Shown here: one piece after another, positions 5,741 through 31,301 of the stretch
How the letters are laid out: the number at the start of each line of letters is the position of its first letter
Position numbering within the stretch: the first letter of the stretch is position 1
Assembly: GCA_013362195.1 (NCBI GenBank)
Contig: JABFWM010000098.1
Span: 1-34,080 of the forward strand
Direction: 5' to 3'
Length of the DNA stretch: 34,080 nt
Source: Acidobacteriota bacterium
GTDB taxonomy: Bacteria > Acidobacteriota > Vicinamibacteria > Vicinamibacterales > 2-12-FULL-66-21
The notes under the pieces: model-generated
Databases searched by the model: none
What the model was told of the DNA's origin: nothing
What the model saw: only the letters and a program-made list of their open reading frames with translations
Translations under genes and position numbers: made by a program

Positions 5741-6517
5741 GCAGCGGCAGCATTCGCAAACAAGACGGGGTTGATCGTCGGCGTCGCGAACAAGCGATCG
5801 ATCGCGTGGGCCATCGCGCAGGCGGTGGCCGGCGAAGGTGCGCGCCTGGCGCTGACGTATCAGGGGGAACGGCTCGAGGAGAACGTCCGCGAGCTGGCCG
5901 CGGGCCTCACCGGGGCGCTGGTGCTGCCGTGCGACGTGAGCGACGATGCGCAGGTCGCACGGGTGTTCGAGGAAATCGAGCGCTCGTTCGGCGGCCTCGA
6001 CTTCGTCGTGCATGGTGCGGCGTACGCGCCGCGCGACGAGTTGTCGAACCCCTTCGTGCACACGACGCGCGAGGGATTTCGTCTCGCCCTCGACGTCAGC
6101 GCCTACTCGCTGATCGCGCTCTCGCGCGGGGCGCTGCCCCTGATGGAACGGCGGGGCGGCGGAACGATTCTCACGCTGACCTATCTCGGCAGCGAGCGCG
6201 TCTTTCAGAACTACAACGTCATGGGCGTCGCGAAGGCGGCGCTCGAATCAACGGTGCGCTATCTCGCCGCGGATCTCGGTCCGAAGAACATCCGCGTCAA
6301 TGCGATCTCCGCCGGACCGATCAAGACGCTGGCCGCCGCCGGCATTTCCGGCTTCTCGTCGATCCTGCAGGTGTATCGCGATCGCGCGCCGCTGCGCCGG
6401 ACGGTGGAGACGTCGGAAGTGGCCGACGCCGCGGTGTTTCTGTTGAGCGACGCGGGACGCGCCGTCACCGCCGAAGTGCTGATGGTGGATGCGGGCTATC
6501 ACGCGACGGGCATGTAG
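5738..6517 (+). CDS. fabI: Enoyl-[ACP] reductase
   Basis: GVANKRSIAWAIA, YNVMGVAKAALE (YxxMxxxK), RVNAISAGPIKTLAA. Confidence 0.97.
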   Translation: MAAAAFANKTGLIVGVANKRSIAWAIAQAVAGEGARLALTYQGERLEENVRELAAGLTGALVLPCDVSDDAQVARVFEEIERSFGGLDFVVHGAAYAPRDELSNPFVHTTREGFRLALDVSAYSLIALSRGALPLMERRGGGTILTLTYLGSERVFQNYNVMGVAKAALESTVRYLAADLGPKNIRVNAISAGPIKTLAAAGISGFSSILQVYRDRAPLRRTVETSEVADAAVFLLSDAGRAVTAEVLMVDAGYHATGM

Positions 6518-28837: not shown

Positions 28838-30034
28838 TTACAGGTGGATGGCCGCCGCCTCGAACAGCGACTGGATCTCCTGGTCGTTCAACCCGACATC
28901 GTCGCGCAGGATCGATCGCGTGTGCTGACCGAGGGTCGGCGGCGCCTGCGTGACATGCGGCGGCGTCGCGGACATCTTGATTGGATTGCCGAGGACGCGA
29001 ACGTTGCCGGCGGTGGCGTGGGGCAGCTCGACGATCATGTCGCGCGCGGCCAGCTGCGGGTCGGCGAGCGCCTCGGAGACGCTGCGGACCGCGCCGCACG
29101 GGATGCCCGCATCGGTGAGCGCGCGCAGCAGCGCGTCGCGCCGCCACCGCCCGAAGGCGTCGAGCAGCACCGGCCGCAGCGCGTCGTAGTTGCTGACGCG
29201 GGCGGCATTGCTTGAAAAGCGCGCCTCGGCGGCCAGCGCGGAGCGCCCCAGCACGTCGCACAGGCGGCGAAACTGCTCGTCGTTGCCCACCGACAGCACG
29301 AACTCGCCGTCCGCGGACGAGAAGGTGTCGTACGGCGCGATCGACGGATGCCTGTTCCCCATCCGCGACGGCGTGCCGCCGGTCGCGAACGCACTTGCCG
29401 CTTGATACGTGAGCAGCGCCGCGACCGAGTCGAGCATGCCGACGTCGACGTATTGGCCGCAGCCGGTGCGCTCGCGCGCGTGGATCGCAGCGAGCACGCC
29501 CTGGGCCGCGAAGAGACCGGTGGCGATATCGGCGATGGCGACGCCGAGACGGAATGGCGGTCCGTCCGCCGCGCCGGTGATGCTCATCAATCCGCCCTCG
29601 GCCTGCATCATCGCGTCGTAGCCCGCTTCCGCGCGGCGCGGGCCGGTCTGACCGAACCCCGAGATCGAGCAGTACACCAGGCGCGGATGACGCCGCGCCA
29701 CGGTCGCGTAATCGAGGCCGAATCGCGCCATCGTGCCGGGACGAAAATTCTCGACCAGGACGTCGGCGCGATCGAGCAGGGCGCTGACGATCCGCTGCGC
29801 CCCGGCGTGCTTCAAGTCGAGCGCCAGGCTTTCCTTGTTGCGGTTGATGCTGAGGAAGTACGCGCTCTCGCCGTCGACGAACGGGGGGCCCCACGCGCGC
29901 GTGTCGTCGCCGCGGCCCGGCTGCTCGATCTTGATCACGCGGGCGCCGAGGTCGGCGAGCTGCATCGTGCAGTAGGGGCCGGACAGCACCCGGGTGAAGT
30001 CGAGCACCAGCACGCCGTCGAGCGGTTGCGCCAT
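28838..30034 (-). CDS. CaiB/BaiF family (class III) CoA transferase
   Basis: PLDGVLVLDFTRVLSGP, DLGARVIKIE, NRNKES, DVLVENFRPG, SISGFGQTGP, catalytic Asp in AIADIATG. Confidence 0.95.
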   Translation of the reverse strand: MAQPLDGVLVLDFTRVLSGPYCTMQLADLGARVIKIEQPGRGDDTRAWGPPFVDGESAYFLSINRNKESLALDLKHAGAQRIVSALLDRADVLVENFRPGTMARFGLDYATVARRHPRLVYCSISGFGQTGPRRAEAGYDAMMQAEGGLMSITGAADGPPFRLGVAIADIATGLFAAQGVLAAIHARERTGCGQYVDVGMLDSVAALLTYQAASAFATGGTPSRMGNRHPSIAPYDTFSSADGEFVLSVGNDEQFRRLCDVLGRSALAAEARFSSNAARVSNYDALRPVLLDAFGRWRRDALLRALTDAGIPCGAVRSVSEALADPQLAARDMIVELPHATAGNVRVLGNPIKMSATPPHVTQAPPTLGQHTRSILRDDVGLNDQEIQSLFEAAAIHL

Positions 30035-30046
30035 AATCGGAGGAGG

Positions 30047-30301
30047 ATGAAGATTACCGTCTACTCCGGCGCGCATTGACGCGCCTGCGACGAGGTGAAG
30101 GAGTTTCTTTCACGCGCAGGCCACAGCTTCGAGACGAAGAACATCGAGGAGGACGACGACGCCTACCGCGAGCTGATCGCGCTCGGCGCCCGCTCGGTGC
30201 CGGTGACCGTCATCGGCGAGCGCATGATTACCGGCTTCGACCAGGCGCAGCTCCGCTCGGCGCTCGCCGATGCCGGCGACCGACCGTCACGAGATCGCTG
30301 A
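30047..30301 (+). CDS. Glutaredoxin/NrdH-like selenoprotein (UxxC; Sec at TGA 30077-30079)
   Basis: MKITVYSGAH-U-RAC-DEVKEFLSRAG...RSVPVTVIG..ITGFD: the UGA occupies the first Cys position of the CxxC motif; downstream hairpin; GGAGG upstream. Confidence 0.85.
30083..30121 (+). promoter_or_regulatory. Bacterial SECIS-like hairpin
   Basis: Lower stem GCCTGCG/CGCAGGC, upper stem GTGAAGGA/TCTTTCAC, G-first loop GTT starting 23 nt after UGA. Confidence 0.7.
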
Positions 30302-31301
30302 GCAGCGCGTAGGCGGTCTGGGTCAGGCTGCCGCCCAGCTGCGTGATCGCGATCTCGCCGAGGAGATCGGTCTGCAGGATCAGCGCGTTCGCCATCCCGC
30401 GCAGCCCCGCCAGCATGTCACTCTCGGGCAGTTCGACGGGGCGCACCGACGTCAGGACACCGGTCGGCGTGCGCGCCGCCGACGCGACCAGCCGCACCCG
30501 CGCGCCGCGGCCCTTGGCGGCCATGGCGAGCCGCGCGGTGGCCTGGCCGATCCCTTCGCGGTCGACCCCGAGCGGGGTGATTTGCGCGCGCATCAGCACG
30601 TTTGCCAGCGCCGCCGCCTTGGCCGCGGCGTCCCACCCGTCGACGTCGAGCGACGGATCCGATTCCGCGATCCCCTCCGCCTGCATCCGCGCGAGCGCCG
30701 TGTCGAAGCTCTCGCCGTCCTCGATCGCGCTGAGGATGTGGTTCGTCGTGCTGTTGATGACGCCGCGAAACCCGAAGATGTCGACCGCCGGCAGGGTTTC
30801 GCGAACCAGATTGAACACCGGCACGCCGTCCATCACCGCGCCTTCGAACAGAAACGACACGCCGCGGTCGGCGGCCAGGGCGCTCAGTTCCTCGTAGGCG
30901 AAGGCGGCGGGACCCTTGTTCGCCGTCACGACATGGCAGCCCGCCTGCAGCGCCGCGCGCACGTGATCGATCGCCGGCTGCCCCGCGCCGATGTCGAGCG
31001 TGGTCGTCTCGACGAGCACGCGGAGCGAACCGTCGCTCCGGGCGAGATGCCGAATGACCTCGAAGCTGTCGTGCGCCGGCACCGCGCCGTTCACCTGGAG
31101 GTCCCCGTTCTCCCGCTGCGCCGCCGCGATGGCATCGAGGCCATGCCCGGCGACGACGCAGCCGTGGCGCGCGGTCGCGATGCCCACGATCCGGCAGTCG
31201 AGGTCGTAATCGAGAGAGAGCCAGTCCCGCCGCTCTTCCAGCAGCGTCGCGAAGCGTCGGCCGACGTGGCCGAATCCGACCAGCGCGAGATCAGCGCGCA
31301 T
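30228..31301 (-). CDS. hom: Homoserine dehydrogenase
   Basis: GFGHVG, HVVTANKGP, FEGAVMDGVP, GVINSTTN, GIAESDPSLDVDGWDAAAK. Confidence 0.92.
   Translation of the reverse strand: MRADLALVGFGHVGRRFATLLEERRDWLSLDYDLDCRIVGIATARHGCVVAGHGLDAIAAAQRENGDLQVNGAVPAHDSFEVIRHLARSDGSLRVLVETTTLDIGAGQPAIDHVRAALQAGCHVVTANKGPAAFAYEELSALAADRGVSFLFEGAVMDGVPVFNLVRETLPAVDIFGFRGVINSTTNHILSAIEDGESFDTALARMQAEGIAESDPSLDVDGWDAAAKAAALANVLMRAQITPLGVDREGIGQATARLAMAAKGRGARVRLVASAARTPTGVLTSVRPVELPESDMLAGLRGMANALILQTDLLGEIAITQLGGSLTQTAYALLSDLVTVGRRHRRAPSGAAPGRSR

Follow-up and report, generated by a model that had tools for sequence, protein, structure and literature searches.

A glutaredoxin gene with an in-frame UGA in a soil Vicinamibacterales genome probably encodes a selenoprotein whose reading frame carries a SECIS-like hairpin

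Does an in-frame UGA near the 5' end of a small glutaredoxin-like gene end translation, or is it read as selenocysteine (Sec)? The question is raised by a window of 34,080 nucleotides, by which we mean the whole stretch of DNA analyzed (contig JABFWM010000098.1, positions 1 to 34,080), from a soil Acidobacteriota MAG (Vicinamibacterales) of 4.73 Mb in 699 contigs, 88.9% complete. The features that bear on the question are as follows.

28838..30034, minus strand: CoA-transferase family III gene, divergent neighbor (PF02515, E 1.8e-137).
30038..30045, plus strand: Shine-Dalgarno-like GGAGGAGG directly upstream of ATG 30047, as read from the sequence.
30047..30301, plus strand: predicted Sec-glutaredoxin coding sequence of 84 codons, including the putative UGA-Sec at codon 11, followed by the terminal TGA at 30299-30301.
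30077..30079, plus strand: in-frame UGA, probably Sec (U11), which opens the U-R-A-C redox motif; TGA in 26 of 26 homologous loci.
30083..30121, plus strand: full hairpin as drawn in the preliminary description of this locus, from the MFE structure; its lower helix is lineage-specific.
30086..30088, plus strand: TGC codon of C14, the putative resolving cysteine of UxxC; an invariant column in alignment A2, aligned with Cys16 of cGrx1.
30095..30113, plus strand: conserved candidate SECIS core, an 8-bp helix with a GUU apical loop; 96.6% of cells paired in relatives.
30228..31301, minus strand: homoserine-dehydrogenase-like gene, convergent neighbor (PF00742, E 2.5e-42).

When TGA is translated as U, the frame that opens at ATG 30047 reads MKITVYSGAH-U-RAC-DEVKEFLS and continues to a total of 84 residues with zero further stops, which bears out the frame proposed in the preliminary description. 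The division of this frame by conventional ORF calling, also described there, was reproduced in the standard ORF list, where one plus-strand ORF (29348-30079) ends in MKITVYSGAH and a second (30095-30301) starts from GTG and encodes 68 amino acids. The proposed glutaredoxin identity was likewise recovered, as the read-through protein matches Pfam PF00462 (Glutaredoxin) with an E of 5.4e-11 and 43 bits, compared to a cut-off of 22.9, and the match spans residues 3-61 against positions 1-60 of the 60-position profile. The U/C-x-x-C motif after strand beta-1, the cis-Pro (V-P), and the G-[FY]-[DN] motif are all present in the window protein, and the invariant columns in alignment A2 are C11(U), C14, P52, and G63. 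A thioredoxin-type fold is predicted for the product from its match to the solved structure 7c10 (E 2.7e-23).

Across 24 orthologues, entropies at the three codon positions upstream of the UGA were 0.73, 0.58, and 1.18; this third-position peak argues that the region evolves as coding sequence in the frame of ATG 30047. The upstream sequences of the 26 loci place the Shine-Dalgarno-like motif in the host genome but not in the majority of relatives. At the 3' end, the glutaredoxin of several relatives was observed to terminate earlier, after GGS, and the C-terminal tail DRPSRDR of the window protein may represent a lineage-specific read-on into the antisense of the homoserine-dehydrogenase-like neighbor (30228-30301). 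A survey of the window for other UxxC or CxxU candidates returned seven crude matches, all of which were low-complexity and off-frame-looking and were rejected.

Homologues were recovered by six-frame search in 24 of 41 related genomes, the host included, and all 26 matches carry an in-frame TGA at one identical column within the pattern ..V[YF].G..U..C..VKEFLS. An even sample across the phylum yielded 32 matches in 30 of 201 genomes; within the match, TGA was present in 21, no stop in 10, and only a TAG in 1. Among 120 listed database homologues, 118 are 63-69 amino acids long and start at or near (M/V)KEFLS, and therefore appear to have been called from directly after the TGA. A comparison with Cys homologues, suggested in the preliminary description, placed Cys at the U column of P0022 (SGAH-C-RAC), one of the longer two listed homologues, the other being P0009 with Gly. 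Cys was also prevalent at this column in alignment A3, which consists of 37 hand-picked database proteins and the window protein and whose Sec/Cys tally is valid for this subset: 30 rows cover the U column, with Cys in 28, Gly in 1 (P0009), and Arg in 1 (P0126), and 7 rows are N-truncated. In P0009 and P0126 the U column is replaced and the remaining motif is intact; these proteins could be sequencing errors or inactivated variants. A representative search gave as its best match P0122, a protein of 4561 residues with three glutaredoxin-like stretches.

DNA from two other soil studies covers the same site. One contig (X5, study P2) spans 29933-30428, and another (X7, study P3) spans the entire compared stretch; each differs from the window at a single position, 30092 G>C (Glu16 to Gln), and the TGA is unchanged in both. 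X7 was flagged as a possible source of the window DNA, whereas X5 was not. The TGA at 30077-30079 is not an assembly error. At the RNA level, run X18, for which the RNA label is a guess, provided a single 187-nt contig over 30018-30204, and a true metatranscriptome, X20, covered only 30163-30199, with 3 differing letters; transcription of the glutaredoxin gene is not demonstrated by the contigs of these two runs.

The preliminary description had drawn a two-tier hairpin with a G-first loop behind the UGA, and both tiers are present in the MFE fold. The lower stem pairs 30083-30089 with 30115-30121, plus 30091 with 30114, and the upper stem pairs 30095-30102 with 30106-30113 around the loop GUU at 30103-30105, which indeed begins with G. 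The upper stem-loop, the candidate SECIS core, begins 15 nt past the UGA, and the same bases serve as codons V-K-E-F-L-S and the first base of R. Because the single-sequence fold is within chance (MFE -24 kcal/mol, z -1.5, equaled by 15 of 200 shuffles), the reality of the hairpin depends on comparison between loci. This comparison was conducted on a gapless alignment of 26 loci and 75 columns, in which 96.6% of cells were paired in the upper helix compared to 63% in the lower helix, and RNAalifold retained the upper helix only. The upper tier is thus conserved, while the lower tier, although present in the MFE fold, is not.

Compensatory changes were seen at pair 32:48, which is U-A in 24 sequences and C-G in 2, and at pair 38:42, which is A-U in 20, C-G in 1, G-C in 1, and unpaired in 4; pair 36:44 switches between G-U (15) and A-U (11). 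Shuffle controls gave a modest result, as the count of double-change pairs was matched in 15 of 500 and the covariation score in 6 of 500, and slid registers had fewer cells paired than the true register. Since most of the helix is invariant, the covariation amounts to two pairs in four sequences, with L044 and L045 being paralogue-like. These two loci (in genomes G018 and G032, respectively) represent a second, more distant UxxC glutaredoxin paralogue; L044 keeps the hairpin pairing with other bases (GCGAAAGA/UCUUUCGU), and L045 keeps it, as judged by eye, via a shifted 6-bp stem. In one further locus, L032, the apical loop is GUG instead of GUU.

Synonymous constraint was evaluated on the 24 orthologues, with L044 and L045 left out as paralogue-like. 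Mean third-position entropy was 0.47 over codons U+6 to U+12 compared to 1.17 elsewhere. Within the hairpin, GTG, CTT, and TCA are shared by all 24 of the 24 orthologues, and GAG occurs in 22 of 22; outside the hairpin, residues that are invariantly Gly, Pro, or Leu are encoded by as many as 4 codons each. In the host genome (68.3% GC), the shares of TTT among Phe codons, CTT among Leu codons, and TCA among Ser codons are 10.3%, 2.9%, and 3.0%, respectively. The synonymous sites in the hairpin therefore appear to be frozen on rare AT-rich codons, and we consider this a stronger argument for the hairpin than the covariation. Together, the conserved helix, the compensatory changes, and the frozen synonymous sites uphold the earlier proposal of a SECIS downstream of the UGA. 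Bacterial SECIS elements are described, in the available text of PMC1088965, as stem-loops directly 3' of the UGA that have a small apical loop with a G, and the putative hairpin at 30095..30113 fits this published description. An Rfam search of 29800-30500 with E up to 10 produced no relevant match and no bacterial SECIS family among its matches, and a search of the whole window at the gathering score produced no match.

The preliminary description also implied that selA, selB, selC, and selD should lie elsewhere in the genome, and all four were found above curated cut-offs on contigs of the host MAG other than that of the window. The tRNA-Sec matches Rfam RF01852 with 59.6 bits against 47 and is called SeC, with anticodon TCA, by ARAGORN. 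SelA scored 432.7 bits, SelB 350.9 bits against 242.25, and SelD 344.4 bits against 125. TGA is the commonest ordinary stop in this genome, ending 901 of 1516 long high-GC3 ORFs, and the codon is therefore not reassigned genome-wide. The host selD (contig C600 of G000, position 5745, locus L011) was observed to contain an in-frame TGA as well; this codon lies in a U-A-S-K site, and the apical loop of the hairpin behind it is predicted to be GUG. To judge from these features, SelD is itself a UGA-encoded selenoprotein. SelA was strong in 37 of the 41 related genomes searched, whereas the search for it gave no SelA in G005 (84% complete) or G013 (57% complete), both of which have the glutaredoxin gene. 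Co-occurrence of the gene with the Sec trait was considered as a line of evidence and rejected as uninformative, as SelA is near-universal in Vicinamibacterales.

Overall, we hold it to be highly probable that the UGA at 30077-79 encodes Sec, that Sec11 and Cys14 are the redox pair of a small, stand-alone redoxin, that the hairpin is read by SelB, and that thioredoxin reductase is a likelier reductant than glutathione. In this proposal, selenium insertion, expression, substrate, and reductant of the window gene are what we infer. By analogy with the established mechanism of Sec insertion in bacteria, a complex of SelB, GTP, and Sec-tRNA(Sec) would bind the 8-bp GUU-loop hairpin 15 nt past the UGA and would deliver Sec to a ribosome whose A site holds the UGA, with release factor 2 as its competitor. 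The product would be an 84-residue glutaredoxin-fold thiol/selenol-disulfide oxidoreductase, with Sec11 as the attacking residue. Homology with Grx1 of Clostridium oremlandii suggests that Sec11 would attack a substrate disulfide or sulfenate and that Cys14 would resolve the intermediate, leading to an intramolecular selenenylsulfide that a cellular reductant would then recycle. The identity of this reductant is the weakest step, where thioredoxin reductase or a non-glutathione thiol seems more likely than glutathione. The host genome contains a thioredoxin reductase (410.4 bits against 343.45), and, in a search for the glutathione pathway that covered gshB in this 88.9% complete genome, the score for glutathione synthetase was 19.4 bits against a cut-off of 299.

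The breadth of the UGA-plus-hairpin arrangement was assessed by scanning one genome per species with the exact pattern TGA-N6-TGY-N5-G-GTGAARGAGTTTCTTTCAC, which matched at least 111 stretches of other genomes. By record title, the matches fall in Acidobacteriota, Chloroflexota (Anaerolineae, Dehalococcoidia, and Chloroflexia), Bacillota, Planctomycetota, Armatimonadota, Syntrophobacteraceae, and others; among the Bacillota matches are Fonticella tunisiensis DSM 24455 and Alkalihalobacillus sp. YIM B00296, both of which are isolates. All 80 loci extracted from the at least 111 matches encode a UxxC...VKEFLS glutaredoxin, at a GC content of 0.34 to 0.74 in this pattern-selected set; within the same selection, the module of UGA, 15 nt, and GUGAARGAGUUUCUUUCAC, which also encodes V-K-E-F-L-S, is letter-identical across phyla from 34% to 74% GC. 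Among the unselected loci of relatives, 19 of 26 fit the pattern in a count by eye. VKEFLS is exact in 1 of the 28 Cys-form rows of alignment A3, again by eye, and this variation among the Cys forms suggests that it is the RNA rather than the protein that holds those residues constant in the Sec forms.

A more far-reaching interpretation would be that the dual-coded UGA and hairpin module moves between phyla as a self-contained, portable Sec cassette, which we regard as unlikely. If it were true, the cassette would be readable by any SelB, and the RNA would dictate part of helix alpha-1. Two matches in records with other labels, L071 (labeled Bifidobacteriaceae) and L081 (Betaproteobacteria), were observed to have a GC content of 0.70 and a CoA-transferase III gene adjoining the Sec-glutaredoxin, as well as, in L071, a homoserine-dehydrogenase-like gene; given this GC content and these Vicinamibacterales neighbors, they may be, and probably are, mis-binned contigs. 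In L104 (an Acidobacteria MAG), the Sec-glutaredoxin frame enters a GERGERGERGER repeat after the V-T-V-I-G strand, which may reflect the expansion of a tandem repeat or an artefact of the assembly.

The genes on either side of the glutaredoxin are closely packed against it in the window. The likely start of the CoA-transferase gene, ATG 30034 on the minus strand, and the glutaredoxin ATG at 30047 are separated by 12 nt, and tblastn in relatives gave CoA-transferase alignments that start at residues 1-5 when ATG 30034 is taken as the first codon. This 12-nt spacing of divergent starts could reflect overlapping divergent promoters or near-leaderless transcripts. On the other side, the 3' ends of the homoserine-dehydrogenase-like gene and the glutaredoxin overlap by 74 nt. 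Each of the two neighbors was found in 21 of 25 relatives' loci, and a CAT-A-(A/C)-AATC stretch was seen to recur at the position of 30032-30049 in many relatives, mostly without a Shine-Dalgarno motif. A promoter scan of 29800-30500 detected no sigma-70-like site and one terminator-like site, about the level of chance. Were the module indeed to move between phyla, the glutaredoxin of Vicinamibacterales would be locked in a trio with the CoA-transferase III and homoserine-dehydrogenase-like genes, an arrangement that, within that interpretation, might be a sign of transcription that is shared or leaderless, or of a redox connection with that pathway. Around 40 non-Acidobacterial loci, the nearest ORFs (69 proteins) form a heterogeneous set with only sporadic redox neighbors, such as thioredoxin, rubrerythrin with rhodanese, and DsrE with ferredoxin-thioredoxin reductase, and the neighborhood of these 40 loci pointed to no partner.

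Insertion of Sec has to be weighed against other fates of the UGA. The codon might be read through by a near-cognate tRNA (Cys or Trp), with the hairpin acting as a read-through stimulator only. In bacteria, tRNA-Trp and tRNA-Cys are known to read UGA at a low level, and the inserted residue is indistinguishable from sequence alone. Against this stands the complete Sec system of the host, including what appears to be a UGA-encoded SelD; moreover, Cys could be encoded more simply by TGC or TGT, and Cys forms exist. The hairpin has SECIS features published for bacteria (PMC1088965, available text), and the closest characterized homologue, cGrx1, is reported in the available text of PMC7642778 to be a selenoprotein in its native form, its Sec being located at the matching position. 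We therefore judge near-cognate decoding to be very improbable.

Slightly less probable still is the gene as annotated, in which the UGA at 30077 ends a 10-residue peptide or nothing is translated, and the product is the 68 residues from GTG 30095, a residual glutaredoxin that lacks the redox motif. Public gene callers do adopt this truncated version, as in the 118 of 120 listed homologues of 63-69 amino acids, and, to our knowledge, Sec insertion in bacteria is always in competition with termination. The truncated product, however, would be without strand beta-1 and both redox residues, and yet the 8 codons upstream of the UGA and the U..C spacing are kept in frame, with coding-type substitutions, in 26 of 26 loci. 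The GTG at 30095 is also codon V17 within the putative SECIS helix and is preceded by no Shine-Dalgarno-like motif, as judged by eye. The weakest explanation is that a Cys codon (TGC/TGT) was misread, through a fault in sequencing or assembly, or was mutated to TGA in a pseudogene. It might draw on the fragmentation of the MAG (699 contigs, 88.9% complete) but has next to no probability and is for practical purposes refuted by the identical TGA in all 26 loci, which come from 24 genomes, by its presence in contigs of two other soil studies, and by the at least 111 further stretches that match the UGA-plus-hairpin pattern; the frame is also free of other disruptions. The two signs that the preliminary description had associated with this explanation, a genome without Sec machinery and a TGA unconserved in relatives, were not seen.

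Decoding of the UGA as Sec, the reading that we favor, corrects the annotation of this gene. Because the Sec codon resembles a stop, gene callers shorten the gene, and nearly all members of the clade (118 of 120 listed) are public as proteins of about 68 residues without the active site, some of which are named 'glutaredoxin family protein [Vicinamibacterales bacterium]' by NCBI. Vicinamibacterales are an abundant group of soil Acidobacteriota, and Sec use appears to be common among them: of the 41 genomes searched, 37 have a strong SelA match and 24 the Sec-glutaredoxin. The gene would also provide a natural example of an RNA signal that constrains the codon choice and the protein sequence of its own gene, although it reveals no new kind of system.

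Sec-glutaredoxins of this type have been described before. As far as the available text of the respective papers goes, 'Glutaredoxin (Grx)' with PF00462, UxxC, and 1 Sec is an experimentally verified family in a 2026 review (PMC13188914, Table 1), a 2005 study of the Sargasso Sea described ten Grx sequences with UXXC (PMC1088965), and a 2006 survey found Sec-Grx in Geobacter, Alkaliphilus, and Moorella and credited Acidobacteria with 3 selenoprotein families, the names of which are not given there (PMC1794560). The window gene shares with this prokaryotic Sec-Grx family (Zhang and Gladyshev 2005/2006; PMC13188914), as characterized in the same portions of text, PF00462, UxxC, one Sec, a SECIS candidate directly downstream, and widespread Cys homologues. 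Vicinamibacterales are not named in the available selenoproteome survey text on Sec-Grx, and, in the papers searched, none was found that mentions Vicinamibacter along with both selenocysteine and selenoprotein; the supplementary tables of the selenoproteome papers may list Sec-glutaredoxins of Acidobacteriota. Since the UxxC Sec-glutaredoxin is already published, the finding is less novel than the preliminary description implied.

Related redoxin families were compared as well. The best NCBIfam matches were the YruB type TIGR02196 (66.8 bits against 88.55) and the NrdH type TIGR02194 (51.7 bits against 85.75); with scores under the curated cut-offs, the window protein is not a YruB or NrdH member by NCBI's rule. 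NrdH-redoxin and YruB-type proteins share with it their size and a C-terminal motif of the G-F-D type, and NrdH entries in the PDB match the family profile with E values of 1e-11 to 1e-12; these are Cys proteins, whereas the window gene is predicted to use Sec and has no adjoining ribonucleotide reductase genes. The UXX-star families (NF041212, NF041114, and NF041211) also combine a glutaredoxin-like fold with Sec use, but their Sec, by family name, lies in a C-terminal U-x-x-stop, while that of the window protein would lie in an N-terminal UxxC. They scored at most 38.2 bits, all under cut-off (38.2 against 66 at best), and this identity was ruled out.

The closest solved structure to the family profile is 7c10 (E 2.7e-23, positions 1-67), with a chain sequence that contains C-P-H-C followed by VKEFLS. 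According to the available text of PMC7642778, 7c10 is Grx1 (cGrx1) of Clostridium oremlandii OhILAs, which is natively a selenoprotein; its active site is U(C)PXC, its catalytic Sec was exchanged for Cys13 in the crystallized form, and it is proposed to be the reductant of a selenoprotein MsrA. A Sec-MsrA partner of this kind was considered for the window protein and rejected; the MsrA of the host genome has no in-frame stop, and the pairing of Sec-Grx with Sec-MsrA in C. oremlandii is therefore not transferable as such. The hosts differ, being a high-GC soil Acidobacteriota MAG in one case and a Clostridium in the other, as do the active sites, U-R-A-C in the window protein and U-P-H-C in cGrx1. 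Both proteins, however, have a small single-domain glutaredoxin fold of about 84 residues (7c10, 7c12, and 7c13 for cGrx1), predicted in the case of the window protein, in which Sec comes first in U-x-x-C, right behind strand beta-1, and VKEFLS follows. U11 and C14 of the window protein align with Cys13 and Cys16 of 7c10, and this match, together with the native Sec of cGrx1, argues that the window gene is a homologue of a verified Sec-glutaredoxin in which Sec occupies the equivalent position. On the strength of these sequence comparisons, we conclude that the window gene is, in all likelihood, a genuine further Sec-glutaredoxin, of a kind that has already been published and experimentally verified.
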